A program made the translations under genes and the position numbers. DNA of 32,000 nucleotides from Pirellula staleyi DSM 6068. Lineage in GTDB: Bacteria > Planctomycetota > Planctomycetia > Pirellulales > Pirellulaceae. Position 1 is the stretch's first letter, and every line of letters begins with the position of its first letter. Positions 3,776-27,834 of this stretch are shown here, one piece after another. The stretch lies in NCBI GenBank assembly GCA_000025185.1, contig CP001848.1:2460001-2492000 (forward strand). The letters are read 5' to 3'. Below the pieces are notes generated by a model. The model saw only the letters and a list, made by a program, of their open reading frames with translations. It had not been told where the DNA came from and ran no database searches.

Positions 3776-4410
3776 GTAGTCGGCGCCGGATGCATCTCCT
3801 CAGCGAGATCTTCTCCGTGATCGGGCGCTCCCCTCTCGCGAGCCCCCTCGATTCTGCAATTTTCCTGCCGACGCTCCAGCTTTCGGTGGGTTTTTCTCTG
3901 CGCTAAGTGTGTCGATGTGCGCGCTTCAGCTACGGTCTTCTTTTCTAGGCTTCTAGGTGTCGTAAGTCATTACTAGTAAATGGCTTGCATCTATTTGTGC
4001 TGCTTTTCGGGGCACGCTCCTCAGCATTCTGCCACAGCTATGTGGCGAGCAGACCACAGGCGATGCGTTTTCGCTGCAGCGGAAATGTGGAGCACTCCGG
4101 AACTTCTGAGGGGCTACAGACGTCCAAGGTAGGTTCGGAACGTCTGGAGCGATGATTTCGCGCACACAGTCGAGCGACACCCATCGCGGGGGTTCAGAAA
4201 AATCGACTATGCCGAGAAGAGGGGCTGACGAGCCTGGGTAACAAGATCCCGGCCGGCAACTGGCAGAGATGCCACCTTCCGGGCATGTGATTTGCCAGAT
4301 ACCCGATGGCGGTTCGCAGTTTGACGGTTGGAAGGCGGGATGATCGTTACGACCGGAAGAGTTGCAGCGGAAACTTTGGGACTGGTGCTAGTGAGGGACG
4401 CGCAATTTTG

Positions 4411-4438: not shown

Positions 4439-4644
4439 CCGTCTTAAGTGCCCGAAATGCTACCGGTCTAGTGACGTATTCGCTAGTCTCGTCTTACCAA
4501 CAACTTACGGCAAACAATCGCGATCAGGTTGGGCGAGTTTTAGCGTTCAGGCAACAGGCGTGTTCGTGGTGGTGTGGCAATTCTGCCACCAGGAAGAAAA
4601 AAGAAGACCGGGCTATCGGTTTTTGACTCACAAAGGGCTGGTTC

Positions 4645-7600
4645 ATGACCACTCGGCGTTCGCAGCAAGTGTCGGCAATCAAAAAGAGCAGCAAGTATCG
4701 TCAATTCGCCCGTGATAAGGCGCGTCGGCTGCACCTCGAGCAACTCGAAGATCGTCGGGTGATGGCAACCGCCACTCCGCCAGTCTTTATTCTCCCTAAT
4801 TCGGGCGTACTTCTTAACGAAGGCGATACCCGCAATGTCGCGCCGAAGGATCTCACCTTCCGCTTCAACAGCCTCACTGCTGTCGACCCAAGCACGCTGG
4901 CCAACGGCATTCGTTTGATCCGCAGTGGCGGCGACGGGCTGTTCGGTCAGCCGAACGACCAGGTAATCACCCCCGGGTTTATCGGCATTGGCGATAACTC
5001 GCGCGAAGTGATCATGCGTTTTGCAGACACCCTGCCCGACGATGTCTATCGCATCGAAGTGGTAGGTGCTGGTGTCACCCCGCTCCGCGATACCGCTGGC
5101 AACCCGTTTAACAGCGGCGTGAACTACACGGTCAATTTCAATCTCGACCTCGGTGCCCAGGTCATCGCTGTGGTGCCACAGCCGATCGTTCGAACCGGCA
5201 CCACCCTCACGCAGCGTCGCGATCAGATTGCCGTCTACTTCAACGACGACGATTTGCTGCAAGATGCACTCGCCTCGGGCCGCGCCACCAATCCGCAGCT
5301 CTATCGTTTGTACGCCACGCGCAACACGCTCGATCCGACCGACGATGTCGAGTTCCTGCCGTCGAGCGTGGTCTATAACCCTGCCACCGATTCGGTCACG
5401 CTGACATTCGCCAGCGACATCGATCAACTCCTGACGGGAACGCTCGTCACCAATCAGTTCGAAGATCAAGTGGGTGCTTTCCGTCTCCGTATCGGCACCA
5501 CCGAAACGGCCCGTGGAACAACGCAAACCATTCGTCTGGGGACGGTCGATCCAGGTTCGAGTTTTGCAACCGCCTTGCCGATCGACGGCACACTGGTGGC
5601 TGGCACCCAAGGTGGCAGCGTGGCTTATTCGCAAGCCATTGAAGCTCAGCCGTACAACCTCGACTGGCCAGGTGGTAACGACGAACCAGGTCATCGCGAC
5701 ATCCCCACGCAGGGGCACGTTGCCGACGACGCCAACACCCAAGCGGGCGGTGCTCCGAATGCCGGTGACAACACCGATGGCATCACCACCGTTTACTACA
5801 ACTTCAAGCAGCAGATTGGTGTGATCAATGGCGGCATTGGTGGTAGCCAACCAGCCTTCAACCTGATCTCGGAAAATCAAAAGGCGCGTGCTCGCGAAAT
5901 CTTTGATCTCCTCAGCCGCTATGCCGGTGTACAGTTTGTCGAGTCGGAATCGCAAGGGCTGATTGTCGCCACGGGCGACATGCGCGCGGTCGGCACTCCG
6001 TCCGATGGCGTGGGTGGCACGATCGGCACGTTCGGTCTCAATGCATTCCTCGAACCTGTGGTGCTGCTCGATTCGGCCGAAAGCTGGAACGATCAGATCA
6101 GCACCATTCTCACGACCCTTCCCGGTCAAGAGAGCTGGTTCCAAGAGGCGATGCGCAACATCAACCTCTTCTTGGGTCTCGGCTCCAACGTCGAACTCCC
6201 TGGATTGCAAGCCCAAGGGGCCGATCTCTCGCTGCAAGGTTCGGCGCCACTGCCAGAACCTGTACTGCCAGGTGATGCTGACATTGTCCACTTGCAGCAC
6301 CTCTACCGTCCCGAGAGCAAGGACATCGACCTCTATACGTTCACCGTACCTGCCGGTCAGTCGGGCCTGTTTACGGTAGAAACATTTGCCGAACGTCTCG
6401 CGAACTCGAGCACGCTCGACACGCATGTTGCGATCTACCGCGTGACTCCCACCGGCGAAATCGAAGTCATTGCTCGCAACGACGACTACTTCAGCAAAGA
6501 TTCCTACGTCAACGTCAACCTCACTGCGGGCACCTACTACATCGGTGTTTCGGCCTCGGGTAACGACAAGTACGACGGCGACGTGGTCGATTCCGGCATG
6601 GGTGGAACGACGCAAGGGAAGTACGAAATCAAGTTCGACTTCCGCAAAACTCCTACGGGCACGCTTGTCGATTCGACCGGTGTTGCATTCGACGGCGACA
6701 ACGATGGTTTGCCTGGTGGTGTGCACAACTTCTGGTTCCGCGCTGCATCGCCCATGCCGCAAGGGACCACGGTTGCCAACCGTCCTGCCAACGACGCCAG
6801 CCGCACGATTTTCGTCGACAAGCGTAACACGCAAACCAGCCAAAACGGCTCGATTCAAAATCCCTTCAGCAGCATTCCGAATGCGATTGCCGCCGCACGG
6901 CCGAACGACATCATTCGTATCGTGGGCAACGAAGGGACCGACAACGTCGATGATGGGCTGAACGACGTGCTGGCCTACCGCATCGGTTTCGACACGTTTG
7001 GCAATCCGCTTGCCGACGGTGCCAACCTGCAGGTGCCGAAGGGTGTAACGGTGATGATCGATGCCGGCGCTGTCTTCCAGATGCGTCGTTCGCAAATCAG
7101 CGTCGGTAGCACGGCTCCTTCGGTTTCGTCCGATCGCAGTGGTGGCGCGCTGCAAGTTCTGGGAACTCCGACCGACAACGTCTACTTCACCTCGTACAAC
7201 GAGAATGGCAACGGCAGCATCGGTCTCGACCAGAACCCACTCAGCACAACCCCTGCTGCTGGCGACTGGGGTGGGATCTCGTTCCAAAACGACTTGGATC
7301 GCGCCGACGGCCGATTCAATTTCGAAGATAGCGGTATCTTCCTCAACCACGTGAACAACGCCGACATTCGCTACGGTGGTGGTCAGGTGATCGTCGATTC
7401 GGTCTCGGTGGTGGTAACCCCGATTTTCATCACCGACTCGCGCCCGACGATTTCTTACAACACCATCACGCGCAGCGCCGTGGCGGCAATGTCGGCCAAC
7501 CCCGACAGCTTCGAGGAAACCAACTTCCAGGCGCCTAAGTACTGGACGAGCTACTCCGACGATCAATCGAGCAATCCAGGCATTGCTTCGCGCAGCTTCA

Positions 7601-8502
7601 CGCTCGACTACAGCCGCGTCGGTCCCGACATCCAAGGGAACAAACTCCGCGTGCTCGAAGGCTCGATCGCCTACACCAACACGATCAACGGCCTGTTCAT
7701 TCGCACGGGAACACCCGCTGGTGCCACAACGGAAGAGCTGACCGTTACGGGTCGTTTCGACGACACCGATATCGTCCATATTCTCCAGGAAAACCTGACG
7801 GTTCGTGGTCAAGCAGGTGGCTCGTTCATCGAAGAATCGTTCCCACCAGCTGCCCTGATCATCGCCGCTGAAGAATTCGTTCCAGCGCAGATCTCGAGCG
7901 CGACCCCTGGCTTTACCGCTGGCTCGCAACCTGAATACAAAATCACCTACGTCGATCTGCTCGGCAATGAAGGGGTGGCTTCGGAAACGTTTGTCACCAC
8001 TCAGCCCACGCTCGAGGCTGGTTCCTTCATCCGTCTGACGCAGCTGCCAGTTCCCACCGGCAACTTTGTCGCACGCAATCTCTACCGTCGTGAACTTTCG
8101 ACCGGTCGCTATGTGCTGGTCGATTCGATCCCAGCATCGACCACCGAGTACGTCGATCGCAATGTGCCGCAGCCTGCCGAGAAGTCGTACCTCACCGTGG
8201 CTGCAGCCGACGATACGGTGCTGCCAGACACGACGAATTCGACCATCACGCAATCTGCCGGTGGCACTTATGTCGCGGGGACAACGGTTCGCTACGAACT
8301 CCGCTATGTGAACGCAACAGGACAGGAAGGGCCCCCCCCTCAATCCTGGCGCAGTGATTCCACCAGTTCAGATCCCTGGTGTATTGTTCCCAGCGTTCAC
8401 CGTGACCACCGCCAGCGCTCAAATCACGCTCAGCGGTTTGCCTGTCACGCCGAGCAACCCTTCGTTCGTCGATCCACCGCTCGGCTCAGCGGCTCCGCAT
8501 AA
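4645..8502 (+). CDS. Giant extracellular/surface multidomain protein, N-terminal part (as-read fragment 1; frame lost at the C8 run 8332-8339)
   Basis: 1,285-codon ORF from ATG 4645. The N-terminus MTTRRSQQVSAIKKSSKYRQFARDKARRLHLEQLEDRRVMA is a basic stretch plus LExLExR motif with no hydrophobic signal-peptide core. It is followed by SbsA/Big_5-type Ig-like modules (...RDTAGNPF...) and a metzincin-like region lacking zinc ligands (5779-6315). Next come a PPC-like module (KDIDLYTFTVPAGQ...ARNDDYF...GTYYIGVSASGN, about 6310-6645) and a parallel beta-helix segment (GDWGGISFQN..., about 7260-7500). FN3-like units close the sensible sequence (PEYKITYVDLLGNEG...LYRRELSTGRYVLVDSIPASTTEYVD). After the C8 run the last 54 codons (8341-8502) are Arg/Ser/His-rich and look out of frame. 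Confidence 0.85.
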   Translation: MTTRRSQQVSAIKKSSKYRQFARDKARRLHLEQLEDRRVMATATPPVFILPNSGVLLNEGDTRNVAPKDLTFRFNSLTAVDPSTLANGIRLIRSGGDGLFGQPNDQVITPGFIGIGDNSREVIMRFADTLPDDVYRIEVVGAGVTPLRDTAGNPFNSGVNYTVNFNLDLGAQVIAVVPQPIVRTGTTLTQRRDQIAVYFNDDDLLQDALASGRATNPQLYRLYATRNTLDPTDDVEFLPSSVVYNPATDSVTLTFASDIDQLLTGTLVTNQFEDQVGAFRLRIGTTETARGTTQTIRLGTVDPGSSFATALPIDGTLVAGTQGGSVAYSQAIEAQPYNLDWPGGNDEPGHRDIPTQGHVADDANTQAGGAPNAGDNTDGITTVYYNFKQQIGVINGGIGGSQPAFNLISENQKARAREIFDLLSRYAGVQFVESESQGLIVATGDMRAVGTPSDGVGGTIGTFGLNAFLEPVVLLDSAESWNDQISTILTTLPGQESWFQEAMRNINLFLGLGSNVELPGLQAQGADLSLQGSAPLPEPVLPGDADIVHLQHLYRPESKDIDLYTFTVPAGQSGLFTVETFAERLANSSTLDTHVAIYRVTPTGEIEVIARNDDYFSKDSYVNVNLTAGTYYIGVSASGNDKYDGDVVDSGMGGTTQGKYEIKFDFRKTPTGTLVDSTGVAFDGDNDGLPGGVHNFWFRAASPMPQGTTVANRPANDASRTIFVDKRNTQTSQNGSIQNPFSSIPNAIAAARPNDIIRIVGNEGTDNVDDGLNDVLAYRIGFDTFGNPLADGANLQVPKGVTVMIDAGAVFQMRRSQISVGSTAPSVSSDRSGGALQVLGTPTDNVYFTSYNENGNGSIGLDQNPLSTTPAAGDWGGISFQNDLDRADGRFNFEDSGIFLNHVNNADIRYGGGQVIVDSVSVVVTPIFITDSRPTISYNTITRSAVAAMSANPDSFEETNFQAPKYWTSYSDDQSSNPGIASRSFTLDYSRVGPDIQGNKLRVLEGSIAYTNTINGLFIRTGTPAGATTEELTVTGRFDDTDIVHILQENLTVRGQAGGSFIEESFPPAALIIAAEEFVPAQISSATPGFTAGSQPEYKITYVDLLGNEGVASETFVTTQPTLEAGSFIRLTQLPVPTGNFVARNLYRRELSTGRYVLVDSIPASTTEYVDRNVPQPAEKSYLTVAAADDTVLPDTTNSTITQSAGGTYVAGTTVRYELRYVNATGQEGPPPQSWRSDSTSSDPWCIVPSVHRDHRQRSNHAQRFACHAEQPFVRRSTARLSGSA
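5779..6315 (+). other. Metzincin (matrixin/serralysin)-like domain with the HExxHxxGxxH slot degenerated to RNINLFLGLGS
   Basis: ITTVYYNF...FNLISENQKARAREIFDLLSRYAGVQFVESE...GLIVATGDM...SWFQEAMRNINLFLGLGSNVE...PGDADIVHLQHLYRP parallels the M10 layout. That layout is: sequence block, 'Qk..a...al..W..va.i.F.E', HExxHxxGxxH, then 'DDI.aIQ.LYG'. The RNINLFLGLGS stretch is at 6154-6186. Confidence 0.45.
8332..8339 (+). repeat. C8 homopolymer at the point where the giant gene changes reading frame
   Basis: gaagg gcccccccct caatcc. Frame 1 reads GGG CCC CCC CCT CAA. The +1 frame (open from 8312) reads ..CCC CCC CTC AAT CCT and continues for 3,945 codons. Confidence 0.95.
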
Positions 8503-11500
8503 CCTGCGCGTCTATCGCTCGGTCAATGGTGGCAATTTCGAACTGCTCGCCACGCTTCTGCCAGGACAAACGTCGCTCGTCGACACCGGCGCGGCGATTG
8601 CCAACCCGGTTCTGATGGCCGAACCCACAGCTACTGGCACCACGGCACGCCCTCGTCCCGATGCCAACCTGGTTATCGACCCCGCGATTGTGGTGAAGTC
8701 GGACGGTGCCCGCATCGATGTCGGTGTCGGCGCAAGCTTCATTGCCGAAGGTCAAGCGGGACTCGAAGTGGTCCTCACCTCGCTGTCGGATGATCGCTAC
8801 GGTGCCGGTGGCACCTTCGATACCGGCAACGATGGTGGCACCAGCACCTCGTCGGCAGCTCAAGAGGGAGATTGGGCCGGTATCTACTTCTCGCCCGATT
8901 CCAGCGGCAGCATCGACCGCGCTGTGATTGCCTACGGTGGTGGTCTCAACCGCATCGAAGGTAACTTCGCCGGTTTCAACGTCATTGAAATTCGCCAGGC
9001 CGATGTTCGGATCGCGAACAGCGAGTTCGAATTCAACGCCGATGGCACCGGTGGTCAAGCGCCCGCCGATCGCTTTGGTCGTGGCTTCAATGAAGCCGCC
9101 ACGATCTTCGTGCGTGGTGCTCAGCCGGTCATTCTGAACAACGCCGTGCACGACGACGAGTCGGCCTTCATCAACATCAACGTCAATTCGCTCACCAGTG
9201 AACTGATTGTCGACACTGGCCGCCAAACAGGCTTCGTTGGCCGTTTTGCCGGCTATCAAGACAACAACGGTCCTCTCATCCGTGGCAACCGTTTGCAAGA
9301 CAACGGTATCAACGGCATGGTGGTCCGTGGCGCTGTGCTCACCACGGAAGTGGTCTGGGACGACACCGATATCGCCCATGTCCTGTTCGACACCATCGTC
9401 ATTCCCGACCTCCACACCTTTGGTGGTTTGCGACTCGAAAGCTCGGGCACGGAAAGCCTCGTGGTCAAGTCCTCGGGTGCTACCGCTGGCTTCGTGGCGA
9501 CGGGACGTCCGCTCGAAATCGACGACCGTATTGGCGGCGTGATCCATGTCCTCGGTCAGCCTGGCTTCCCGGTCGTGTTGACCTCGTTCAGCGACGATAC
9601 AGCGAGTGCCGGTATCGACTTGCAGGGCAATCCCCAGAACGACACCAATGGCGACGGTCTCGGCTCGGGACTCCTCCCAACCGGTCCCGAAGTAAACAAC
9701 GGCCTCTTGATCGACAACGATGTGGCCATCGGTACCGTCGGTCAGTTTGCTTACAACGTTGGTCCTGCTGGTTCTTCGAATTTTGGTGGTGGTGTGACTG
9801 CTCAAGGGCAGTCGATGCTGTTCGCCAATCAAGATTTCATCTTCGAGTTCCTGAACTACGTCGATGTCGGCAGCGATGGACTGGCGATTGATCTCGCCAC
9901 CTCGACCATCACCCAAGCTCCCACGCTGCTCGCCGACGACTTGGTCGAAAGCCGCGGTACGTTCCAAGGGCAAAATGGTCTGATCACTTGGATCGTGCAG
10001 ACTCGCCTCGACGACGGTGTGGCGACGGTGTTCAACACCATCACGTTCACCAGCACCGCGCCGCTCGGCAACTTGCAATTCATCAACTACCTCGATGAAG
10101 ATGTGCTCGGCATTTCCGACGACGTCCTCTATCGCGTCGGTTCACCAGGACAAGCCGACTTCCGTCTCTTCACCTTGGATGGCCAGGAGAAGATCGGTTT
10201 TGCTCAAGGTGGTATCTACACCGCTGGTCCAGGACTTGTGAATGCTACGTACACCGGCTGGGCCGCTGATGAGTATTCCGATCTGAGCTTCGACATCGAG
10301 ACCACTGGCACCACCTACTCCCCGACCGGAAATGTCGACCTCATCGCCCTGCCGGTAGTGGCCGATCCGGACCTCGGGAACGTGAATGGTCCTGCCGACG
10401 TCACGACCGCCATGGCTTGGACGGTCAACCCCACAGCCACCACTGCCACCATCACCACGTTCCTGGAACTGATTGCACGCAACCCAGTTTCGTCGGGTAC
10501 TGCCGGTGAATGGCAAGGGATTGTCATCGACGAGTACAGCCACGACCGCAACGTCGAGACAGTGCTCGAACAAGAGTCGGCTGTAAGCGACGGCACGGTG
10601 AACAACAGCCCATCGAAGGCCCAGTACCTCGGTGGTTTGGCCTCGGCCGAGAAAAACGGCGACGAAAACCTCCGCCTCGGCTTCACGGTGCATGGTCTCA
10701 TCAATCGTAACGACGACATCGACGTCTACAGCTTCAAGGCACTCCCTGGAACGGAAGTGTGGTTTGATATCGATCGGACTTCGGTCGCTTTCGATGCGGT
10801 GATTGAGCTGGTCGACGAAAACGGCATCGTGCTCGCCCGCTCGAACAACTCGACGGCCGAAAATTCCGGTGCCGAAGCGCTCTTCGGAACAGCTCGCGAC
10901 ATGCAGAAGACCCCTCCTTACCAAGGGCAGGACTTCTACACCACGAACGTCAAAGATCCTGGTATGCGAATCGTGCTGGCTGGTCCTGCCGGACAGCAGA
11001 GCACCTACCACATTCGCATTCGCAGCAACACCACCAACTTGCTCGCCAATCCTCCGATTGCCGGCCAAACCAACGGTGCTTATCAGCTACAAATTCGCCT
11101 GCGTGAAGTGGACGAGTTTGGTGGCAGCACGGTTCGCTACGCCGACATTCGCAACGCTGTGAACGGCATCGCGGTGCTCGGTCAGCCTGCTCACTCGCCA
11201 CTGGCGGGTGAACGAGGGGAAACCACGGCCAACAATAACACGTTTGCCAACGCCCAGAACCTCGGTAACTTGCTCACCAACGATCGTGGCACCCTGTCGG
11301 TCGCCGGTTCGCTCTCGGCTTTCGACGATGTCGACTGGTATCGCATCACGCTCGACAACACACTCCCATCGCAGGCCGCTTTCTGGAATGCGATCTTCGA
11401 TATCGATTACGCCGATGGTTTGGCTCGCCCCAACACCGCACTCTACGTCTTCGATGAACTCGGTCGGTTGATCCTCACTAGCCGCGATTCGAACATTGCG

Positions 11501-14500
11501 GAAGATCGTCCGAGTGCTGCCCCCGGGAGTGGCATTAGCGATCTGAGCCGAGGTTCGGCCGGTGGTGGTGATCCGTATATCGGCACCGTCGCTTTGCCGA
11601 CGAACATTGTGAATCCTAATCCTCCTGATGCGACCGAGTTCTACTACGTCGCCATCTCGTCGGATCTGCGGATGCCTGCTCAGCTCGAGCAATTCTTCCA
11701 GGCCAATGCCAGCAACCCGCTGTTGCGTTTGGAACCCGTGGAGAGCGTGCAGCGCATTGTGGAAGACCACATCGGCGCGTTCATGACCCGCAGCACCGCT
11801 GCCGCTCCCGATGTCCAGGTCTTCATCGAAGCTCAAAACGCCATCCAGTACACGATCAGTGACGTGGTGCTCTACGTCAACATGTCGGCCGACGACGGAA
11901 CCGAGCAGACGCGTCTGGTGACGGTCGATCCATTCACGGGCGATAACGAAACCTACCTGTCGAACTTCGCTCGTGACACGGGCGACCTGGTGCTGCGTGA
12001 AGACAATCGCCTCTTTTCGTACACCATCGATCTCGACGACAACTTTACGCTCGACGATGCTGAATCGGGCAACTACATCGAACTGAACACCGGCACCGGT
12101 GCTTTCACGACGATTGGTGACGACGGCATCATCACCTACGAGTCGAACCTGGGGGCTCCACCTGCTCCTGTCGTTTCGAACCTGGGTGTCAACAACACTC
12201 GCTGGGGCTACGGTCTGCAGTTCAACGCCATGGCGTTTAGCGACATTGGCTACGCTTTTGATGCCAACGGCAACCAACTCTCTGAACGTTTGATCGCTGT
12301 CGGTAATCGTGGTGACGTCAACAGCAACAACCCTGCTTCCACCGCCATCGATCGTCGGCAGAACATTGTTTACTCGATGGATGCCAACACCGGTGCCGCC
12401 CAGATCACCGGCGCGGGAGCTCGTCTTTCGGGCTCGGGGACCGGCGTCTACGAAGTGGGTGAGATTCTCACCTCTTCCCGTTTGACTTTCCTCTCGGATG
12501 CCACCACGGGAACTGGCCTCGCCGGTTTCGCGGTGAACGATGGCTTGACCTTTGGCGTCAACACCGAAGCAAGCAGCACGACTTTTGAGTTCGATTCCGG
12601 TTTTGATGTGCAGCAGCTGATCAATACAGCGACCGGTCAAACGATCCAGGACGGTTACTTCTTCATCCTCGATTCCGACACAACCCTCGGCAATCAAAAT
12701 GAAGTGCTCTATCAGTTCGACACCGGTGTGGTGATCACGGTCAATCCAGGCCTGCTCTCCACTGGCATTGTCGACGGCAGCACATTCACCGTTCGCGTGA
12801 ATGGTGTGCCTCGCGTGTTTGAATTCGATAACACAGGCGCAGTAACGGCCGGTAACATTGCCGTGAACGTCGGCGGTGGCATCTTCGGTGCCGACGTCAT
12901 TGCCGCACGCATTTCCAATGCGATCGATACCCAGACGGCTGCGGCCTTCCCAGTCGATGGCTATGTCGAGCCGCTTGGCAATCGTATCTCGCTCATCCCA
13001 ACAGTCGCGACACCGATCCCGATTACCGCCACCCTTGGCACTTCGAGCGCTTACCTCACCTTCCAAGGTGCTAACGGTACCGCCCCTGTGTTGCAAGGTG
13101 TCAATCCAGCAGGAATCGGCGAAGGGACCACGTTTACCGTCTCCAACGGTGTGACCAATTTCACCTTCGAGTTTGACCGCGACAACGCCGTCTCCGGCAC
13201 CAACATCCGGGTCAATATCTTCGGTGCTACGACCTCCACGGATGTGGCTGGCGCGATCGAGGCAGCGGTAGCCACGTTGCCAGCGACATCGGGTCTGAAT
13301 GCCACACGGTTCGGCGATCGCGTGATCGTCAACGGTCAAGGCGTCACCTTCTCGCGACAGACTTCGGCTGTTTACAGTCTCACCGATTCCATCGCGAATG
13401 GTGGTCTGCAGACGGTGCAAGTCTCCGTGGAAGAACGGGATGGTTCGGCAGTCGTTGGAGCTGCAGTGCTCGCGGCGATGAACAACGGTAATCCACGGTT
13501 TGCTGCTGGTGCGGCCTTCGATCGCATCAACTTCCCACCGATCAACACCGGTGGACTTACTCCTGTGGCTTCCATCGACATCTCGGCTGTTCCGGTCTGG
13601 TCGCCAGTTGCCGGTACTGCTCCAGGTGTCGCAGGTGGTCGCGAACAGATTCCATTCCTCGCATCGGATACGGCAAATCAGCTTGCCAATCGTGCGGTAA
13701 CCGCCATCAATGCTGCTCTGAATGCCACCGAAGGGATCACCGCGCAGTTCTCGGGTGGAAACGTCGAACTGAATCGTGGCACGTTCACGATTGGGGCCAC
13801 GACAGCTTTGGCAGTTAGTGGCCAAGGTCCTGGTGGCAACATCACGGGCATTGTCGACATCACGCCGCCGCCTGGCATCGCCCAGGGTATGAATCAGCTG
13901 ATTCGTTATTACCTCGCAGTGAGTGACAATGGTGGTTTGTATATCGTCGAACTCGATCTGTTTGACAACCAAAACATCACTCCGAACTCGCCCGCTGCGA
14001 TTGCGAACAAGACGAATCAGGTTCGCACGTACTACATCGGCAACTCGGCCGACTCCCTGTCGGGAATCGCCTTCCAGGCGCTCACCAAGGGGCCTGAGAA
14101 TGTCGAAGGTGGCCGCTATCAAAATGTTTGGTACGCAGTGGCGGATGGTCCCGGCAACGGCGACAACCAGAGCCGCTTGCACGCCTTCAATTTCGACGCC
14201 ACGTTCGAAACGACGGCCGAATGGAATGCATTCCGGAATGCCTTCCTCACTAACAACACAGCCGCTCTCAATGCACGCTTCACCGGACGCGCTCCTGTGT
14301 TCGTGGATGGTGCCACGAGCATTCCGCTGTTCTACACCGTGCCGCAAGGTGCCGAAGGAAATGCTGTTCCGATTCGCCGGGCTGTGACCGATGCCAAGGG
14401 TATCGCCTTCTCGTCGCTCGATCAGAACTTGTGGAAGCAAACCACCACACAAAGTGGCGCAGCTGGTCACGAAGGTGGCAACAGCTTGGTCTTCGGCAAC

Positions 14501-17500
14501 GACGGTCAAGAGCAATGGGCCGGTAACACCTACAACTTCCCTGGTGGTGCCACGGGCTCGATTGTGTCGAACGAGTTCAGCCTCGAGAACTACTCGGTGG
14601 GCGATCAACCGGTGCTGTACTACAGCTACCTCGGTGCCACCGATGGCAGCAACGACAGCGTGCGTGTTTACATCAGCGGCGTGAACGATGCTGATCGCGA
14701 CGGCATTGCTGATAACAACCCTGGTCAATGGACGCTGCTGACTCAAAGTGGTGGCTCAACCTACCTCAACACCGGTTGGCGTCAGGTTCGTCTCAACCTG
14801 GGTGACTTTGCAGGCTGGTCGAATCTCCGCCTTCGTTTCGACTTCAGCACCGCTGGCGAAATGAACGTCGGCGATGCCGGAACAACGGGCGACGAGCTTC
14901 GCGCTGTCGATGCCAAGTACATCCTCGATGGAGACGTCGTGACGATTGGTGGCACCACGTTCGAATTCGAATCGGGTGTGACGCTGACCATGCCTAGCGG
15001 CCGTGCGATCAACGACGGTGAAAACTTCACCATCCAGATCAACGGTGCACCGCAAGTTTATGAATTCGACAAGAACGGTACACAGTCGATTCCTGGTTCG
15101 ACGCTGATTCCTGTCACCAACGCCACAACCCCCGAGCAAGTGACGCTGCTTCTGCGTGATGCGATCGTCGCGAATCAAGCAGGCCCTGGTCCAATCGTTA
15201 CACCACGCATCGAAGGTGGTGTGGAGTGGATCTTCCCCGATGCTAGTGCCTATGCACTGATTCCCGACAATCAGCTGCAGTTCACACTCGATGACGGCAC
15301 CAATCCACCGGTGACGTTCGAGTTGGACCGCGACAATGCTTCGACTCCGGGCACGATCCCTGTCGAATTCAGCCTGGCGATGGACTCGGCTCGAATCGCT
15401 CTCGAAGTGGCACGTGCGATTCAGGGCTACGCCAACGGCTTGCAAACTGGCGACAATTTGCATGTAACGGCCAGCTATCGTCAGCCGAACATCGTGCAGA
15501 TCGAAGGCTTGGTGGACTACAATGCTAACTTCGCCCTGCAACTGCTGAAGGAAACGCCTTACTCGGGTAACCGTCTAAACCTGCAAGGGGCCGAGGCCTT
15601 CACGCAGAGTGCTGTCCATGCGATCGTTGCCACGGGTGCTGTAGGGGTCGCCAATCCGAACAATGTGCCAGTGAACATTCACCTGGCGATGCGAGCTCGC
15701 GATGTGGCCCAGTCGTTCGACGCCGTACTCGAAACGGCGTTCCGCAATCAGCAACTCGTCGTGCAGAACGGCAGCTTGTACGAAGATGGTCAGGTGATCG
15801 ATATCGATCACGATGGCGACGGCGGACTCCTGACCCCCGATATCCGCTTCGAGATCGAAACTGGCTTGATCGTCTCGATCCCGGGCAATGGTGCGGTTGG
15901 TCCTGGTGGTGTTGCCGATGGCGATACGATCACGATCACCAATGGTGGTGCTCCGGTGACCTTCGAGTTCTCGACGGACGGAGTCCCGGCTGTTCCCACG
16001 AATGTTCTCGTGTCGTTCCGGGCCACCGATTCGCAAGCGGTGATTGCTCGAGCCTTCGAAGCTGCGATCAATGGTCAAGGCTCCCTAGGCATTACCGCTC
16101 GCGTTGTGAGTGGATCACGCATCCAGCTCTCGAGTGGTGCCCTCTCTCCAAACCTTACCTTCGCCACCAGCGACGTAACGAAGTACAACACGGGCAACAC
16201 GTTTGCCGGTGTCGCAGTGGGCAATACGCCGATCATCGTCTCGCCGACCGCACAGTTCACCGCTCAGCAGATGGCTGCAGCTGTGGCTGCTGCGATCAAC
16301 GCTGCCGGGGTGGTGGGCTTCTCGGCTCAAACCAATGCAGGTGTTCCAAACCAAGTGGAATTGCTTTCGACCGATGTCCGTGTCTCGGCACTCGATTCGA
16401 TCGGCCTGACGATTCCAGCTCCTCAGCCAATCAACGGCACCGGAGTGGCCCCAGCCGCTCCGAACATTGTCTTCGAGACAGGTGTGTTCGACATCGCTAA
16501 ACGCGAACGCGACTTGATGCGAATCATCGGACGCAATGTCACTGCTCGTGGACCACTCGGTTTGCAGTCGTTCGGCATGACCGGTGAACTGCCTGACCAC
16601 TTCCAGAACGGCAACGGCATTGTCGCGGGCTTCACCAGCAGCCTCCGTGGTCAAGACAACAACCACGAAGGTTTCTACATCGACGACATCATCATCGGCC
16701 TGGCCGAGCGTGGTGAAAGTGCCAGTGGCGCGACGACGGCAACCGGCTTTGTGGTGAACCCACTCGGCACTGGCAACACGAGCGGTGCTTACCAACTCGA
16801 AATTCGCCGCGGCCCTGCCTACGATCGATTTGTCGGCACTAACCCAGGTGAAACAGCTAACTCGAACGATCGCTACGCTCAGGAATACACGATCGTAGCC
16901 AAGTCGGGTGCTGAACTGGCCGATGGTGTGACCTTCACCCTCAGCGATGGCATCAACCGAGTCACGTTCGAGTTCGATGAAGTCGCGCTCCCCGGCCGTC
17001 CAGCTCTTCCAGTGGCTGTCACCCCGGGTAATCAGCGCATCGCCTTCAGCTCGACCGATACGGCCGACGAAGTGGCTGTTCGCATCCGCGACGCCATCAA
17101 CTCGTCGCAAGTGCAAGCGGTGCTGAAGCTGACCGCTGGACTCGCCGATGGCACGCTGGTTGGCAACGTCACCACCTCGAACCGCGTGAACGTCGTCGGT
17201 GCTGCTACGGTAGCCATTGAAGGACGCAATGCGGTCGAAGTGAACGACACCCTGTCGCAAGCTGTGGCCACCAACTTCAACGGTACGCAGTACTTTGCTC
17301 AAGGAACGATTGGCGACAATCCCGAACTGAGCATCAGCCGCGATACAGAAGGTCATGATGTCGATCTCTTCTCGATCCGCCTGAGTGCTGGTCAGACGAT
17401 TCGCATCGATATCGATACCGAGAACCTCAACTTCTCGAGCGAAGTGGGCAACTTGCTCGATACGGTCCTTCGCATCTTTGATTCCACCGGTGCCGAACTG

Positions 17501-20191
17501 GCATCGAGCGACGACGATTTCGCTCCTGGCGAAGAACGTTCGTTCGACCTAACCACACGCGAATCGTACCTCGAGTTCCGGGCTCCCCACGCCTCGGGTA
17601 CGGTCACCTACTACATCGGTGTGAGTGGCTTCGGTAACCAGACTTACAGCTTCCCCAATGCCACCACCGTGGTGGGCACGGAGAGCAGCAGTACGCTCGG
17701 CTTCTATCAACTTGAGATTTCGACCGCGCTCACTAGCTCGCTGGAAATCGAGAAGTTCGAAGAAGAACTGGGCGACAAGAACCTGTTCCGCGATCAGGGT
17801 CAGATCCTGCTCTACGGCAACACGATCAGCAATAGCTCGCAGTGGGGTATCTTGGTGAACAACGGCACGCGTACAGCTGCCGATGGTAACGCACCGCATC
17901 AAGGACCTGTTCGCAACCTGCGTGAGCAGAACATCGATCGCCTGGTGCCAGGTGTGGTGATCTCGAACAACGTGATTCACTCGAACACGGTGGGTGGTAT
18001 CCGCTACAGCGGCGATGGTGGCATCGATGCTCCAGTGTCGTTCGGGCGGATCATCAACAACACCCTGTACGGAACGGGTGGCAACGATGTGGGTATCCAA
18101 GTGGATCAGGCTGCCAGCCCCACGCTGCTCAACAACATCGTGGCCAACTTCGGTCAAGGTGTGAATGTCGATGCTCTCAGCAGCTCGACGGTGCTAGGTG
18201 GCATGGTCTATCAAGGAAACACTTCGAACTCGAACGTGGGTGTGGGTGGCGACTTCCCACTTGTGCTCGGTCCAACCGACCCGCTGTTTGTGAATGCCGG
18301 TCTCCGCAACTTCTACCCAGCTCCGGGATCGCAAGTGATCGATAGCTCGGTCGGCTCGCTGCTCGACCGAACATCGCTGGTGACCGTGAAGAACCCGATG
18401 GGAATTGGTCTCTCGCCAATCATCGCTCCTGAGCGTGACGCGGTGGGTCAGCTCCGGACCGACGATCCTGCGGTATCGACCGCCAACGGTTTCGGTCTCA
18501 ATCCGAATATCGATCGCGGTGCGATCGATCGCGTCGACTTCACCGGCCCGACCTCGATTCTCGAGAATCCTCGCGACAACGATGCGGAAGGTGTTGACCT
18601 CGATCCAACGGTCAGCGTGGTGACGCTTGAGAACACCGTTCTCAACGACTTCACGATTCGTCTGGTCGATCGCTTCGACGTGAATGGACCTGCTGAAGGT
18701 TCGGACATCGATGACTTCACCGTGACGGGTGACAAGGTGACGGTAACGTCGACCGTTGGCACCACCACAGTGACGCTGGTTGAAGGTGTCGATTACTCGT
18801 TCAGCTACGATTCGACGAACAACATCATTCGTCTCACGCCACTCGGTGGATTGTGGCCACTATCGCGAACCTATCGCATCACGCTCGATAACTCGGCCAC
18901 TGGCATCCGCGACTTGGCGGGCAATGCTCTGTCGCCAAACCAAATCGACGGTATGCACTACTACACGATCTTCCTCGGATCGGCTGTCGATTGGGGGGAT
19001 CTGCCAGATTCGTACGGCACGCTCGCCGCCAACTTGTTGGTGGGACCAAGCCATCAGGTGGTGGGTGGTATTCAGCTCGGTGCACTCGTTACCTCGGAAC
19101 CCGATGGCAACCCCGCTGCTCCTGGTACGGATGCCAACCTCGACAACGGTGACGATGGTATCCAGTTCGTCAATTTGCAGCCAAGCAACGCTCCCAATAC
19201 CTCGCAGATCATCGTCACCGCGACGGCGACCGGTAATCTGTCGGCATGGTTCGACTACAACCGCAACGGTGTGTTCGACACCAATGAAATGGTGCTCGAC
19301 AACATTGTGATCGGAACGACTCCAGGTGTTGGCGAAACGATCTTCTTCCAGATTCCAGCAGATGTGGCCAAGGGGGATATCTATGCCCGCTTCCGCTTCA
19401 GCACGTCGGATGTCGATTCGCCGAACGGTGCACTCCCCGATGGTGAAGTCGAAGATTATCGGTTGACCTTGACGGGTGCTCCGTTTGAGAACACGGCTCC
19501 ACTCGATCAGAACAACGACTTGATCAACGATGGATTCCTCGATGTGACCGCCGATGGCGCCATCACCCCGCTCGATGCCCTCATCGTGATCAACTTCCTG
19601 AACCTTTTGTCTCCACAGTTTGGTGGTGGTCCGATTCCGCTGCCCAATGCAACGCTCGACTCGCCACTCCCTCCACCTCCCGGTCAAATCAACCGCTATG
19701 TGGATACCGATGGCAATGGAGTTCTGACCCCGTTTGATGCACTGCAGGTCATCAACTACTTGAACCTGAACCCCAACCAGTTCTTTGGTGAAGGTGAACC
19801 AGCCGCTGATGGAGCGGAAGGTGAGCCATCGTCGACCTCGGCGATCAGCTTCAGTGCTCCTGCGAGTGTGGAAGTGGCCTCGGCCCCTCAGCTTGAGTTG
19901 TCGATTCCATCGGTCCTGTACAGTTCTCCAAGTGTGGTTCTGGAAGTTCGCGAACGTGCTCCCCAATCGGTGGCCACGGTTTCGAGCAGCAGTGCTTCCT
20001 CGGGTTCGGATTGGTCGTCGGACGACGAGTTCGCCAGCTTGGCCTTGGCCGACTACGCCCTCAGCGGAGTTAGCAGCCACGGTGGACTTGAAGTTGGACC
20101 GGTTGGCCATACCAACTGGGACGATCTGCTGAGCGATATCGCACTGTCACACGAAGAGGAAAACGAAGACGATTTCTTCGCTAACCTCTAA
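8354..20191 (+). CDS. Giant extracellular/surface multidomain protein, main part (as-read fragment 2; continuation of 4645..8502 in the +1 frame)
   Basis: 3,945-codon ORF. Its frame is open from 8312, and the GTG at 8354 is merely the first possible start codon, probably not a real initiation site. It continues the FN3-like unit (ITLSGLPV...LRVYRSVNGGNFELLATLLPGQTSLVDTG). Beta-helix segments follow (GDWAGIYF..., about 8870-9330; PbH1-type repeats NNVIHSNTVGGIRYSG / IINNTLYGTGGNDVGIQV / LLNNIVANFGQGVNVD, about 17800-18175). There are three more PPC-like modules (about 10670-11108, 11252-11665, 17240-17725) and about ten 'FEFD' modules (12500-17220). The C-terminal part has a GEVED domain (18978-19470), two dockerin-type repeats (19541-19765) and an acidic tail ending EENEDDFFANL. 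Confidence 0.9.
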   Translation: MIPPVQIPGVLFPAFTVTTASAQITLSGLPVTPSNPSFVDPPLGSAAPHNLRVYRSVNGGNFELLATLLPGQTSLVDTGAAIANPVLMAEPTATGTTARPRPDANLVIDPAIVVKSDGARIDVGVGASFIAEGQAGLEVVLTSLSDDRYGAGGTFDTGNDGGTSTSSAAQEGDWAGIYFSPDSSGSIDRAVIAYGGGLNRIEGNFAGFNVIEIRQADVRIANSEFEFNADGTGGQAPADRFGRGFNEAATIFVRGAQPVILNNAVHDDESAFININVNSLTSELIVDTGRQTGFVGRFAGYQDNNGPLIRGNRLQDNGINGMVVRGAVLTTEVVWDDTDIAHVLFDTIVIPDLHTFGGLRLESSGTESLVVKSSGATAGFVATGRPLEIDDRIGGVIHVLGQPGFPVVLTSFSDDTASAGIDLQGNPQNDTNGDGLGSGLLPTGPEVNNGLLIDNDVAIGTVGQFAYNVGPAGSSNFGGGVTAQGQSMLFANQDFIFEFLNYVDVGSDGLAIDLATSTITQAPTLLADDLVESRGTFQGQNGLITWIVQTRLDDGVATVFNTITFTSTAPLGNLQFINYLDEDVLGISDDVLYRVGSPGQADFRLFTLDGQEKIGFAQGGIYTAGPGLVNATYTGWAADEYSDLSFDIETTGTTYSPTGNVDLIALPVVADPDLGNVNGPADVTTAMAWTVNPTATTATITTFLELIARNPVSSGTAGEWQGIVIDEYSHDRNVETVLEQESAVSDGTVNNSPSKAQYLGGLASAEKNGDENLRLGFTVHGLINRNDDIDVYSFKALPGTEVWFDIDRTSVAFDAVIELVDENGIVLARSNNSTAENSGAEALFGTARDMQKTPPYQGQDFYTTNVKDPGMRIVLAGPAGQQSTYHIRIRSNTTNLLANPPIAGQTNGAYQLQIRLREVDEFGGSTVRYADIRNAVNGIAVLGQPAHSPLAGERGETTANNNTFANAQNLGNLLTNDRGTLSVAGSLSAFDDVDWYRITLDNTLPSQAAFWNAIFDIDYADGLARPNTALYVFDELGRLILTSRDSNIAEDRPSAAPGSGISDLSRGSAGGGDPYIGTVALPTNIVNPNPPDATEFYYVAISSDLRMPAQLEQFFQANASNPLLRLEPVESVQRIVEDHIGAFMTRSTAAAPDVQVFIEAQNAIQYTISDVVLYVNMSADDGTEQTRLVTVDPFTGDNETYLSNFARDTGDLVLREDNRLFSYTIDLDDNFTLDDAESGNYIELNTGTGAFTTIGDDGIITYESNLGAPPAPVVSNLGVNNTRWGYGLQFNAMAFSDIGYAFDANGNQLSERLIAVGNRGDVNSNNPASTAIDRRQNIVYSMDANTGAAQITGAGARLSGSGTGVYEVGEILTSSRLTFLSDATTGTGLAGFAVNDGLTFGVNTEASSTTFEFDSGFDVQQLINTATGQTIQDGYFFILDSDTTLGNQNEVLYQFDTGVVITVNPGLLSTGIVDGSTFTVRVNGVPRVFEFDNTGAVTAGNIAVNVGGGIFGADVIAARISNAIDTQTAAAFPVDGYVEPLGNRISLIPTVATPIPITATLGTSSAYLTFQGANGTAPVLQGVNPAGIGEGTTFTVSNGVTNFTFEFDRDNAVSGTNIRVNIFGATTSTDVAGAIEAAVATLPATSGLNATRFGDRVIVNGQGVTFSRQTSAVYSLTDSIANGGLQTVQVSVEERDGSAVVGAAVLAAMNNGNPRFAAGAAFDRINFPPINTGGLTPVASIDISAVPVWSPVAGTAPGVAGGREQIPFLASDTANQLANRAVTAINAALNATEGITAQFSGGNVELNRGTFTIGATTALAVSGQGPGGNITGIVDITPPPGIAQGMNQLIRYYLAVSDNGGLYIVELDLFDNQNITPNSPAAIANKTNQVRTYYIGNSADSLSGIAFQALTKGPENVEGGRYQNVWYAVADGPGNGDNQSRLHAFNFDATFETTAEWNAFRNAFLTNNTAALNARFTGRAPVFVDGATSIPLFYTVPQGAEGNAVPIRRAVTDAKGIAFSSLDQNLWKQTTTQSGAAGHEGGNSLVFGNDGQEQWAGNTYNFPGGATGSIVSNEFSLENYSVGDQPVLYYSYLGATDGSNDSVRVYISGVNDADRDGIADNNPGQWTLLTQSGGSTYLNTGWRQVRLNLGDFAGWSNLRLRFDFSTAGEMNVGDAGTTGDELRAVDAKYILDGDVVTIGGTTFEFESGVTLTMPSGRAINDGENFTIQINGAPQVYEFDKNGTQSIPGSTLIPVTNATTPEQVTLLLRDAIVANQAGPGPIVTPRIEGGVEWIFPDASAYALIPDNQLQFTLDDGTNPPVTFELDRDNASTPGTIPVEFSLAMDSARIALEVARAIQGYANGLQTGDNLHVTASYRQPNIVQIEGLVDYNANFALQLLKETPYSGNRLNLQGAEAFTQSAVHAIVATGAVGVANPNNVPVNIHLAMRARDVAQSFDAVLETAFRNQQLVVQNGSLYEDGQVIDIDHDGDGGLLTPDIRFEIETGLIVSIPGNGAVGPGGVADGDTITITNGGAPVTFEFSTDGVPAVPTNVLVSFRATDSQAVIARAFEAAINGQGSLGITARVVSGSRIQLSSGALSPNLTFATSDVTKYNTGNTFAGVAVGNTPIIVSPTAQFTAQQMAAAVAAAINAAGVVGFSAQTNAGVPNQVELLSTDVRVSALDSIGLTIPAPQPINGTGVAPAAPNIVFETGVFDIAKRERDLMRIIGRNVTARGPLGLQSFGMTGELPDHFQNGNGIVAGFTSSLRGQDNNHEGFYIDDIIIGLAERGESASGATTATGFVVNPLGTGNTSGAYQLEIRRGPAYDRFVGTNPGETANSNDRYAQEYTIVAKSGAELADGVTFTLSDGINRVTFEFDEVALPGRPALPVAVTPGNQRIAFSSTDTADEVAVRIRDAINSSQVQAVLKLTAGLADGTLVGNVTTSNRVNVVGAATVAIEGRNAVEVNDTLSQAVATNFNGTQYFAQGTIGDNPELSISRDTEGHDVDLFSIRLSAGQTIRIDIDTENLNFSSEVGNLLDTVLRIFDSTGAELASSDDDFAPGEERSFDLTTRESYLEFRAPHASGTVTYYIGVSGFGNQTYSFPNATTVVGTESSSTLGFYQLEISTALTSSLEIEKFEEELGDKNLFRDQGQILLYGNTISNSSQWGILVNNGTRTAADGNAPHQGPVRNLREQNIDRLVPGVVISNNVIHSNTVGGIRYSGDGGIDAPVSFGRIINNTLYGTGGNDVGIQVDQAASPTLLNNIVANFGQGVNVDALSSSTVLGGMVYQGNTSNSNVGVGGDFPLVLGPTDPLFVNAGLRNFYPAPGSQVIDSSVGSLLDRTSLVTVKNPMGIGLSPIIAPERDAVGQLRTDDPAVSTANGFGLNPNIDRGAIDRVDFTGPTSILENPRDNDAEGVDLDPTVSVVTLENTVLNDFTIRLVDRFDVNGPAEGSDIDDFTVTGDKVTVTSTVGTTTVTLVEGVDYSFSYDSTNNIIRLTPLGGLWPLSRTYRITLDNSATGIRDLAGNALSPNQIDGMHYYTIFLGSAVDWGDLPDSYGTLAANLLVGPSHQVVGGIQLGALVTSEPDGNPAAPGTDANLDNGDDGIQFVNLQPSNAPNTSQIIVTATATGNLSAWFDYNRNGVFDTNEMVLDNIVIGTTPGVGETIFFQIPADVAKGDIYARFRFSTSDVDSPNGALPDGEVEDYRLTLTGAPFENTAPLDQNNDLINDGFLDVTADGAITPLDALIVINFLNLLSPQFGGGPIPLPNATLDSPLPPPPGQINRYVDTDGNGVLTPFDALQVINYLNLNPNQFFGEGEPAADGAEGEPSSTSAISFSAPASVEVASAPQLELSIPSVLYSSPSVVLEVRERAPQSVATVSSSSASSGSDWSSDDEFASLALADYALSGVSSHGGLEVGPVGHTNWDDLLSDIALSHEEENEDDFFANL
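12500..17220 (+). repeat. Array of divergent protein-level 'FEFD' modules inside the giant gene
   Basis: The recurrent pattern is [DG]G.TFT[VIL]..[ND]G.....FEFD..(G/N).......[IV].V, then an amphipathic A..I..AI helix. FE[FLI][DES] cores sit at 12584-12595, 12818-12829, 13166-13177, 14960-14971, 15059-15070, 15317-15328, 15848-15859, 15962-15973 and 16967-16978. One example is DGSTFTVRVNGVPRVFEFDNTGAVTAGNIAVNV...ADVIAARISNAIDT. Another is DGVTFTLSDGINRVTFEFDEVALPG...TADEVAVRIRDAINS. Confidence 0.7.
18978..19470 (+). other. GEVED domain (C-terminal domain of secreted bacterial proteins)
   Basis: GSAVDWGDLPDSYGT...GPSHQV..LG...SEPDGNP...NLDNGDDGIQF...LSAWFDYNRNGVFDTNE...YARFRFSTSDVDSPNGALPDGEVEDYRLTL reproduces the DYGD.P.SYGT ... 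W.D.N.DG.F ... RfR.s ... GEVEDY signature. Confidence 0.75.
19541..19765 (+). repeat. Pair of dockerin-type (EF-hand-like) repeats at the C-terminus of the giant protein
   Basis: DVTADGAITPLDALIVINFLN (19541-19603) and DTDGNGVLTPFDALQVINYLN (19703-19765). Both fit D.[DN].[DN]G.[IVL][TS]P.DAL.VIN.LN. Confidence 0.8.
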
Positions 20192-20216
20192 TCACCAAAA
20201 GGTTTACCGTGGGCTG

Positions 20217-20238
20217 AGAGTTGCCATTGGGCAGCTCT
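20217..20238 (+). terminator. Weak terminator candidate after the giant gene (hairpin without a U-tract)
   Basis: AGAGTTGCC (20217-20225), loop ATTG, GGCAGCTCT (20230-20238): 9 bp including one G-U pair, starting 26 nt after the stop at 20191. Two further hairpins follow (about 20253-20279 and AGAGTGTC...GACACTCT about 20290-20316). None is followed by a T-run. Confidence 0.25.
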
Positions 20239-20848
20239 TGGCGATCGATAAAGCCCCTCTAGCTACTTCACTAGGGGGCTGTGAAATGGAGAGTGTCACG
20301 GAATCTTAGACACTCTTGGGCACGAGGCCCCCGGCCAGAGGATTGAATTTGCTGTAAGTGATTGCAGCAAAGTAGTTTGCGTTGATCGGGTGGCGATCTA
20401 GTGACGAGCGATTCTGCTCGAGCGAGCTGCGTAAAATAGCTCGCAATTACGTGCTCACTTGAGGCCTTCTGATCGGAAAACCAAGAAATCGATCGTCAGT
20501 TGTAATGGCCAGGTTAGCAGTAGGGTTTATGACGGCTGGGGATGGGCGAAAACTCTTCGTGACACGCGCAAATTCGTTGCAAAGAAAATTGAGCCCGACT
20601 AGTCTGAAATTGAAACGCATCCCAGAGATTCAGGCACAGTCGGTCGGGATGCGACGGAACAGAAAGTGCAACATCTTATCTAGCTTGAGGTTGCGCTAGT
20701 TAAGGCGGTCGGTGATCCAGCGGCAATGGCGATCGGACGAAGGTTCGTCCCTGGTGGCCAGTTGCGTGGCAAACTTCGTTCAAAAAGTTTGCCCCCGGAT
20801 CATTCTTCCAGCCACAACCGGCGTCACTCGGGCTGCATGGAACCAAGT

Positions 20849-27025: not shown

Positions 27026-27834
27026 CGAGTTTCTCCCACCAATTTGCCACGAAACATCCGGCTGGCACCGAGCGCAACGAAGAACACCACCAGGAGCATC
27101 ACCGTGAAAAGGGCGTTGGTATCGCTCCGCAATCCAAACCGCATGCGGCTAAAAATTTCCATCGGAAGGGTGTCGGTGCCGACCCCTTTGGTGAGCAGCG
27201 TAATCAGCACATCGTCGAGCGAGATTGCAAATACCAGGAGCCAGGCCACTGCAAGGCTCGGTAGCAGTAGTGGAATGATGACGCGTCGCGTGGCTTGCCA
27301 CGGTGTAGCGCCGAGATCGATAGCCGCGGCGTAGAGGTTTTCGTCGAAGTCGGCGATCGCACTTTGCATCACCACAAAGGCATAGCCGATGCCAAACACG
27401 CCATGTGCGAGCAGCAGCGTGAAGTAGCCACGATCGAGAGCAATTGCTTGAAAGGCGAGAGCGAGCGAGATGCCGGTGATCATGTCGGGCGTTACTAGTG
27501 GCAGGGCCAGAAGTCCCGAGGCTGCTTGCTGTGAGGTGGGCTTCCATTTTTTGAGCCCCCACGCGGCGAGCGAACCGAAGACTACCGACAAACTACTCAC
27601 AGCAGCACCGAGCAGCACGCTGGTGCGAAGAGCGATCCACAATTCCGATTCCTCAAACAGGCGCTGATATCCGGCGAGCGAGAATCGTGTGAAGACACTG
27701 CCGAAGCGAGAGTCGTTAAACGAGTAGACGATCGTCATCACCACTGGCGCGTACATCGCCAGCAGCACCACGACCATTGCCAGTTGGCAAAGTCGGCGCG
27801 CGAGGAGGACGAGTGTATCGCGTTCTCCTTTCAT
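27022..27834 (-). CDS. potC: Spermidine/putrescine ABC transporter permease (PotC-like)
   Basis: 270-aa polytopic membrane protein. It has the PotC-type N-terminus (...APVVMTIVYSFNDSRFGSVFTRFSLAGYQRLF) and an EAA-loop (YAAAIDLGATPWQATRRVIIPLLLPS). ATGA overlaps are present at both ends. Confidence 0.9.
   Translation of the reverse strand: MKGERDTLVLLARRLCQLAMVVVLLAMYAPVVMTIVYSFNDSRFGSVFTRFSLAGYQRLFEESELWIALRTSVLLGAAVSSLSVVFGSLAAWGLKKWKPTSQQAASGLLALPLVTPDMITGISLALAFQAIALDRGYFTLLLAHGVFGIGYAFVVMQSAIADFDENLYAAAIDLGATPWQATRRVIIPLLLPSLAVAWLLVFAISLDDVLITLLTKGVGTDTLPMEIFSRMRFGLRSDTNALFTVMLLVVFFVALGASRMFRGKLVGETR

Follow-up and report, generated by a model that had tools for sequence, protein, structure and literature searches.

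A single extra cytosine in the Pirellula staleyi DSM 6068 reference sequence divides the gene for a predicted secreted giant protein

Giant genes of Planctomycetes are the subject of Reva and Tummler (2008) and of Kohn et al. (2016); every planctomycetal genome analysed has genes of this kind longer than 5 kb (PMC5177795). Here we describe a 32-kb stretch of the genome of Pirellula staleyi DSM 6068 (the window, numbered from its first base and read along its plus strand), in which two neighbouring open reading frames (ORFs) that overlap at a run of eight cytosines (C8) are, as read from sequence comparisons, the halves of one gene for a predicted secreted giant protein of 5,181 amino acids (aa). 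The restored 15.5-kb gene resembles the described planctomycete giant genes in its predicted secreted, multi-domain product with dockerin repeats; unlike them, it is hidden as two smaller coding sequences (CDSs), the larger of which is counted at 11.6–11.8 kb and not at 15.5 kb. The cause of the split is an ordinary sequencing error or a fresh mutation, and no regulatory device or new mechanism is indicated.

Several kinds of broken or frame-shifting gene invite comparison with this locus. The 454 platform is prone to homopolymer-length errors, and a genome sequenced by 454 only required 35 such corrections (PMC4102724); with nanopore sequencing, read-level calls of runs of 8–9 nucleotides (nt) are weak, especially for cytosines (PMC9262707). 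As in genes broken by homopolymer miscalls, whether in the 454 era or from nanopore reads, a one-base difference in a run of at least 8 nt is found here together with two ORFs in neighbouring frames; the locus differs from them in that 10.6x Sanger coverage and Illumina polishing went into the sequence, no other homopolymer in the conspecific-covered part of the window is discrepant, and the error itself is one that we infer. Laboratory strains lose adhesion and motility genes by frameshift, as at the poly-A tract of swrA in B. subtilis and in hfsA of C. crescentus NA1000, and in some strains of S. aureus the giant adhesin gene ebh is split by a frameshift into ebhA and ebhB. The present locus shares with these alleles a long-cultured reference strain, a one-base frameshift and a surface function that is intact in wild relatives; in DSM 6068 the putative allele is read from the reference sequence. 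The poly-G/C contingency loci of Neisseria, Haemophilus and Campylobacter likewise have a coding poly-C tract in a surface protein gene, where a change of one unit shifts the frame; here, in contrast, no length polymorphism is seen in the three alleles read, and the tract is short, unenriched and not conserved beyond the species. Programmed +1 frameshifting, as in prfB or by tRNA-Pro on CCC-C, has in common with our site a slippery CCC-C after a purine-rich stretch and a +1 shift that yields the wild-type protein, whereas here the orthologues are in frame, no stop or rare codon is adjacent, and only ~1% background slippage would be expected.

The run at the centre of the locus is exactly C8, at 8332–8339, and is the longest homopolymer both of the window and of the gene; positions 8329–8343 read GGG CCCCCCCC TCAA, the run being flanked by GGG on its 5′ side and by TCAAT on its 3′ side. 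The upstream ORF (ORF1, frame 1) extends from an ATG at 4645 to a TAA at 8500–8502 and encodes 1285 aa, ending, past ...ATGQEGPP, in 54 out-of-frame codons (PQSWRSDSTSS...LSGSA). Frame 2 has a TGA at 8309–8311, is open from 8312 and continues uninterrupted for 3,945 codons, up to a stop codon at 20189–20191. With one C deleted in silico, the two frames join into one ORF of 15,546 nt, made up of 5,181 codons and a stop, whose product reads ...GQEGPPLNPGAV... across the junction and contains the junction peptide ATGQEGPPLNPGAVIPPVQIPGVLFPA, also written as YVNATGQEGPPLNPGAVIPPVQIPGVLFPAFTVTTASAQITLSGLPVTPSNPSFVDPPLGSAAPHNLR. The parts of the split gene are as follows.

4645–8331, plus strand: 5′ part of the giant gene, frame 1, codons 1–1229; annotated as ADB16607.1 / WP_012910870.1
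8312–8502, plus strand: stretch open in both frames, and the position under which a first-pass annotation of the window had reported the split
8332–8339, plus strand: C8 homopolymer, one C above the C7 (GGG CCC CCC CTC = G-P-P-L) of conspecifics
8338–8502, plus strand: out-of-frame tail of ORF1, 54 codons followed by the TAA at 8500–8502
8339–20191, plus strand: 3′ part of the giant gene, frame 2, codons 1232–5181 of the intact allele, with the stop at 20189–20191

The split lies far beyond chance, given the substitution pattern set out below. The tail of ORF1 is a by-product of the extra C and no conserved coding sequence; its peptide found no match among the cluster representatives searched (5.8 billion), a weak negative since representatives only were covered, and the 90% cluster of ORF1 holds no second member of 1285 aa.

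The evidence that carries this reading comes from other alleles of the same species. Conspecific contigs were fetched by exact look-ups of neighbouring proteins; they derive from independent samples, are 98.5–98.8% identical to the window, and comprise L054 and L058 (Logan, SRR845265), L055 (ENA, ERZ27292800) and L056 (Logan, SRR28423922), together with a further conspecific, L050, which is the NCBI metagenome-assembled genome (MAG) GCA_002483025.1. All three contigs that reach the site (L054, L055 and L056, from three different samples and 98.6–98.8% identical to the window) read GGG-C7-TCAAT, and a 5,181-aa product is called in L054 and in GCA_002483025.1. The intact conspecific protein P0129 (5,181 aa) equals the hypothetical fusion in length, with 23 residue differences, and contains ATGQEGPPLNPGAVIPPVQIPGVLFPA, the junction peptide that had been predicted from the window. 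The alignment to conspecific contigs, ~28 kb in extent, has the extra C as its sole indel in coding sequence; the non-coding indels lie at four intergenic sites (3790, 3860, 3940 and 20336; 1 or 10 nt), and the other homopolymers of at least 6 nt in the conspecific-covered part of the window are equal in length to those of the conspecifics. The first-pass annotation had given the C8, both sets of ORF coordinates and the 15,546-nt, 5,181-codon fusion, with every coordinate and number correct, and its proposal that one gene of ~5,181 codons is split by C8 and restored by C7 is borne out exactly by the C7 conspecifics and their intact 5,181-aa product; the C10 that it had offered as an alternative is unnecessary. 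The run that it used as a control, a C7 at 29563–29569 in a potA-like ORF, is indeed in frame and has an equal length in a conspecific contig. Two scans of metagenome contigs, one with a DNA pattern allowing a variable C-run and one with peptide patterns, returned no further conspecific alleles.

A by-frame profile of GC content at third codon positions (GC3) around the junction was too noisy for placing the frame switch, which was instead placed by an analysis of codon positions and of the ratio of non-synonymous to synonymous substitution rates (dN/dS) against the conspecifics. In frame 1, the 5′ part has a pairwise dN/dS of 0.007–0.035 against three conspecifics; the 3′ part has a dN/dS of 0.034–0.043 in frame 2, and of 11 and 3.7 in the other two frames. 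Upstream of the run, 42 of 47 substitutions fall at position 3 of frame 1, while downstream 100 of the 114 substitutions relative to a conspecific fall at position 3 of frame 2. Both halves of the gene are, by these patterns, under strong purifying selection. Private to the window are 15 synonymous changes upstream and 8 downstream (23 in total), against 0 non-synonymous changes in either part, and with no private non-synonymous change, the 3′ part must have been read in frame 2 by the ribosome during practically all of the time that the lineage has been separate. There is no sign of an old, decaying pseudogene, the downstream part having no stops, no relaxed constraint and no excess of non-synonymous changes; the frameshift is therefore either very recent or absent from the cells. 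On the minus strand, antisense ORFs of up to 1,267 aa shadow the giant gene (4540–8343, 8486–10078 and 11087–14746), and one of them ends at the C-run; we read them as non-coding shadows of a codon-biased, GC-rich gene, with a substitution pattern that fits the plus-strand frames only.

The alleles also vary away from the junction. Differences from L054 across the gene lie mostly at third codon positions. Between 11800 and 12400 the window is hyper-divergent from L054, with up to 24 mismatches per 200 nt where neighbouring bins have 2–5, and this segment may have been imported from a more distant lineage. From 17023 to 20248, which covers the last 3.2 kb of the gene and 57 nt past its stop, the window is 100% identical to GCA_002483025.1, with 8–37 substitutions per kb in the adjoining sequence, which suggests a recent recombination tract or a shared allele. 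Upstream of the gene, a 10-bp indel at 3940–3949 (CTTTTCTAGG) is present in the window and L054, and absent from L055 and L056.

Beyond the species, a protein search with a query of 1,000 aa across the junction yielded 214 homologues at E ≤ 0.001, mostly from Pirellulales, with the best 120 listed; in 55 of these best 120 of 214 the junction residue lies within one BLASTP high-scoring segment pair, the alignments being continuous through the junction. The longest match among those listed is 1,744 aa, although intact homologues of ~5,000 aa exist, and the 5,181-aa protein of the conspecific does not itself represent a cluster. Giant proteins seem to be under-represented or fragmented in the protein search, so that split-looking matches there are not to be over-read. 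We also compared 49 homologous loci from genome contigs of other species, the relatives found by scan being 38–55% identical. A single frame is kept across the whole match in 41 of the 49, and 23 of these span the junction. The frame changes in the other eight (L021, L022, L031, L037, L038, L039, L044 and L045, with repeated changes in L044), of which five belong to 'MFD' MAGs and one to Rhodopirellula baltica BR-MGV. None of the eight changes frame at a run of at least 5 nt, so they were ruled out as examples of homopolymer error.

The C-run interrupts a repeated unit of the encoded protein.

7897–8640, plus strand: two tandem beta-rich modules of ~95 aa each, from homologue alignments and AlphaFold2

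The modules follow the pattern G.Y.Y...FVD..G.E(G/S)..S...I.L..LP...RR.YR...LVA.L...T.Y.D, and the run lies inside the second copy, past its first strand (Y.LRYVNATGQEG, followed by PP). That a second copy of the unit stands at the junction had been proposed in the first-pass annotation; by direct pairwise BLASTP the resemblance is weak (30% over 46 aa, E 3e-4), and it is in the homologue alignments that the second copy becomes clear. The AlphaFold2 model of the first, upstream copy is beta-rich, with a predicted local distance difference test score (pLDDT) of 78–92 over residues 1–90, and a Foldseek comparison of this model with the PDB gave no significant match (best E 0.034). The Pro-Pro at the junction is not kept in distant homologues, and the whole module segment (aa ~1060–1335) is missing from 22 of the 49 loci (L018–L048); the tandem ~95-aa module is thus a variable insert in the protein family.

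In the databases, ORF1 is identical to ADB16607.1 / WP_012910870.1 of P. staleyi DSM 6068 (complete genome, 6,196,199 bp), and the 3′ part is annotated apart, as ADB16608.1 (3,858 aa, from an ATG at 8615) and as WP_052303618.1 (3,929 aa, from a GTG at 8402); the UniProt entries for the two halves are D2R0K9 and D2R0L0. A literature search found no paper that mentions the accession numbers of the two CDSs, and exact look-ups of strain-specific proteins returned the reference only, with no second DSM 6068 assembly on record. The genome was sequenced in 2009 with 10.6x Sanger and 20.4x 454 GS FLX coverage; Newbler contigs entered the assembly as pseudo-reads, Illumina GA data served for polishing, the stated error is <1 in 100,000, and the genes were curated with GenePRIMP, 56 pseudogenes being counted (PMC3035237).

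The natural allele is C7, read as GGG CCC CCC CTC; the C8 of the DSM 6068 reference shifts the frame after codon 1231, adds a nonsense tail of 54 codons and leaves 3,950 codons without a start or signal sequence. With a confidence a little short of even, we lean slightly towards a residual homopolymer-length miscall of the 2009 hybrid Sanger/454/Illumina assembly as the source of the extra C, an origin in base calling or assembly that we infer. The gene would then be intact in the organism, the two database CDSs being an annotation artefact. The discrepancy falls in a C8 run, as expected of a homopolymer error, and 454 GS FLX pseudo-reads were used; the preference arises from the position of the run, a classic one for 454 errors, and from the rarity with which any one given slippage event would become fixed over a short time in culture. 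Several points weigh against a miscall, however: the genome is of 'finished' grade, 10.6x Sanger coverage normally resolves C7 from C8, and the Illumina polishing was aimed at 454 homopolymer errors, most of which ought to be eliminated by the two together; the remaining homopolymers of at least 6 nt in the conspecific-covered part of the window match the conspecifics and so give no sign of an error-prone assembly; and a very recent genuine mutation predicts an identical comparative pattern. Such a mutation, a real and very recent replication slippage from C7 to C8 that became fixed in the sequenced type-strain stock, is itself quite possible, if some way below an even chance. It would produce a null or truncated allele with a secreted N-terminal fragment of 1,285 aa, the 3,950-codon remainder being untranslated or made from an internal start without an export signal. 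Wild-type E. coli shifts +1 at CCC-C motifs with a frequency of ~0.9% (PMC8324841), which makes a degree of read-through plausible, and leaky +1 slippage on CCC-C could give ~1% full-length protein if C8 is real. A multi-platform, polished and finished assembly lowers the prior for an error. The C-run is the gene's most slippage-prone site; at 15.5 kb the gene offers mutation a large target, and its costly surface product is plausibly one that cells can do without in axenic culture, in which the strain has been kept for decades; 56 pseudogenes had already been counted in this genome (PMC3035237), and the lack of decay requires only that the mutation be recent. On the other hand, a mutation predicts the same comparative pattern as a miscall, with no evidence specific to it; fixation of a given C7-tract mutation within a short culture history is rare unless selected; and C8 occurs in none of the three natural alleles read at the junction, the fourth record having an in-frame 5,181-aa call. 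Among the causes listed in the first-pass annotation, an assembly error and a mutation remain, about equally likely, and the comparative data do not separate them.

A third reading, which we consider unlikely, is that of a phase-variable contingency locus, in which reversible and frequent changes between C7 (ON) and C8 (OFF) would switch the giant surface protein and the sequenced clone was caught OFF. Such loci classically have a poly-C tract like this one, which is 7–8 nt long and lies at codon 1230, in the 5′ third of a gene for a surface protein; the tract is made of the least used codons for Gly (GGG, 6%) and Pro (CCC, 18%), CCC-CCC encodes only 1 of the 16 Pro-Pro dipeptides of the gene, the one at the tract, and purifying selection on both halves is what would be expected if some cells of a population have the gene ON. 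Yet the three natural alleles read are all C7, the fourth record is in frame and no other tract length has been seen; a CCC-CCC-C somewhere among 16 Pro-Pro dipeptides is not improbable (rough estimate ~0.1); among tracts known to switch, 7–8 nt is near the lower limit of length; distant homologues do not keep the Pro-Pro, 22 of 49 loci being without the whole module, and neither the gene nor the window is enriched in homopolymers. The slipped-strand switching suggested earlier finds no support, tract length being constant among natural alleles. Programmed recoding, also suggested at that stage, is very improbable; here the full-length protein would routinely be made from C8, either by a +1 shift of the ribosome on CCC CCC CC or by slippage during transcription of the C-run. 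In its favour, CCC-C is a known +1-prone motif for tRNA-Pro (PMC8324841), a purine-rich GGAAGGG lies directly 5′ of the run, a +1 slip gives exactly the protein of the C7 allele, and the 121 nt downstream fold well (z ~ −3), only 2 of 258 gene windows scoring ≤ −3.0.

8346–8455, plus strand: predicted RNA stem-loops, starting 7 nt 3′ of the C-run (z ~ −3)

These stem-loops are probably incidental, and conspecific single-nucleotide polymorphisms at 8353 and 8355 break the middle stem without compensation. Downstream RNA structure usually stimulates −1 shifts, and a −1 shift at this site reaches a stop after 6 codons. The requirement for a shift is, moreover, not conserved, the conspecifics being in frame with C7 and 41 of the 49 distant loci being single-frame, 23 of them across the junction; no stop and no hungry or rare codon follows the slip site, frame 0 continuing for 54 codons; and the C7 alleles, which need no shift, have these flanks and this downstream fold as well. 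Scans of the surroundings of the C-run for Rfam families, tRNAs, promoters and terminators found nothing. Programmed or transcriptional slippage is thus disfavoured, the in-frame C7 being the natural state. Least credible of all is the reading that the two CDSs are truly separate, adjacent genes, as they stand in GenBank, RefSeq and UniProt, which the intact C7 allele refutes. The existing annotation (ADB16607.1 and ADB16608.1; WP_012910870.1 and WP_052303618.1) is all that speaks for it, whereas both halves are collinear with single proteins in 55 of the best 120 homologues and with the intact conspecific protein, the junction falls within a conserved module that is predicted to be folded, the annotated ORF2 starts disagree (8402 versus 8615) and both cut conserved sequence, and neither start has a recognisable Shine-Dalgarno sequence or a promoter-like site nearby.

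The product of the restored gene is, by its predicted domains, a typical planctomycete giant secreted protein, with an export motif that scores below the cutoff.

aa 27–41, plus strand: LEQLEDRRVMA planctomycete export-type motif (PF07595), weak, 17.4 bits against a 25.5-bit cutoff
aa 561–637 (nt 6325–6555), plus strand: N-terminal PPC domain (PF04151), passing with 29.7 against 25.9 bits
nt 17357–17629, plus strand: C-terminal PPC domain (PF04151), 25.1 bits, just below the 25.9-bit cutoff
nt 17792–18247, plus strand: right-handed beta-helix (PF13229), passing the cutoff
nt 19235–19465, plus strand: GEVED domain (PF20009), passing the cutoff
nt 19541–19765, plus strand: two dockerin type I repeats (PF00404) near the C-terminus, passing the cutoff

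Directly downstream of the giant gene, at 20726–25834, lies a second large secreted-protein gene, an ORF of 1,702 aa (1,661 aa as called in L050) whose product has Big_9 and cadherin-like repeats and a dockerin domain. On the minus strand, 25922–29773 holds a potABCD-like operon for a spermidine/putrescine ATP-binding cassette (ABC) transporter, made up of a binding protein, two permeases and an ATPase with a TOBE domain, the C7 at 29563–29569 being located in the ATPase gene. In L050, DotU- and IcmF-related genes are found just past the window edge.

The practical value of these observations is an annotation correction in the genome that serves as reference for the type species of Pirellula: D2R0K9 and D2R0L0 (RefSeq WP_012910870.1 and WP_052303618.1) should be merged if C7 is true, and flagged as a frameshifted pseudogene if C8 is true. 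The consequences of the split reach counts of giant genes, tables of pangenomes and orthologues, and proteomics databases, as well as inferences on attachment and surface phenotypes in the type strain compared with wild P. staleyi. To our knowledge, no contingency (phase-variable) locus has previously been described in Planctomycetota, and this one would be the first if phase variation were true, linking giant-gene expression to population heterogeneity in attachment. If the mutation is true, the type strain would be without a giant surface protein that natural populations keep under strong purifying selection.

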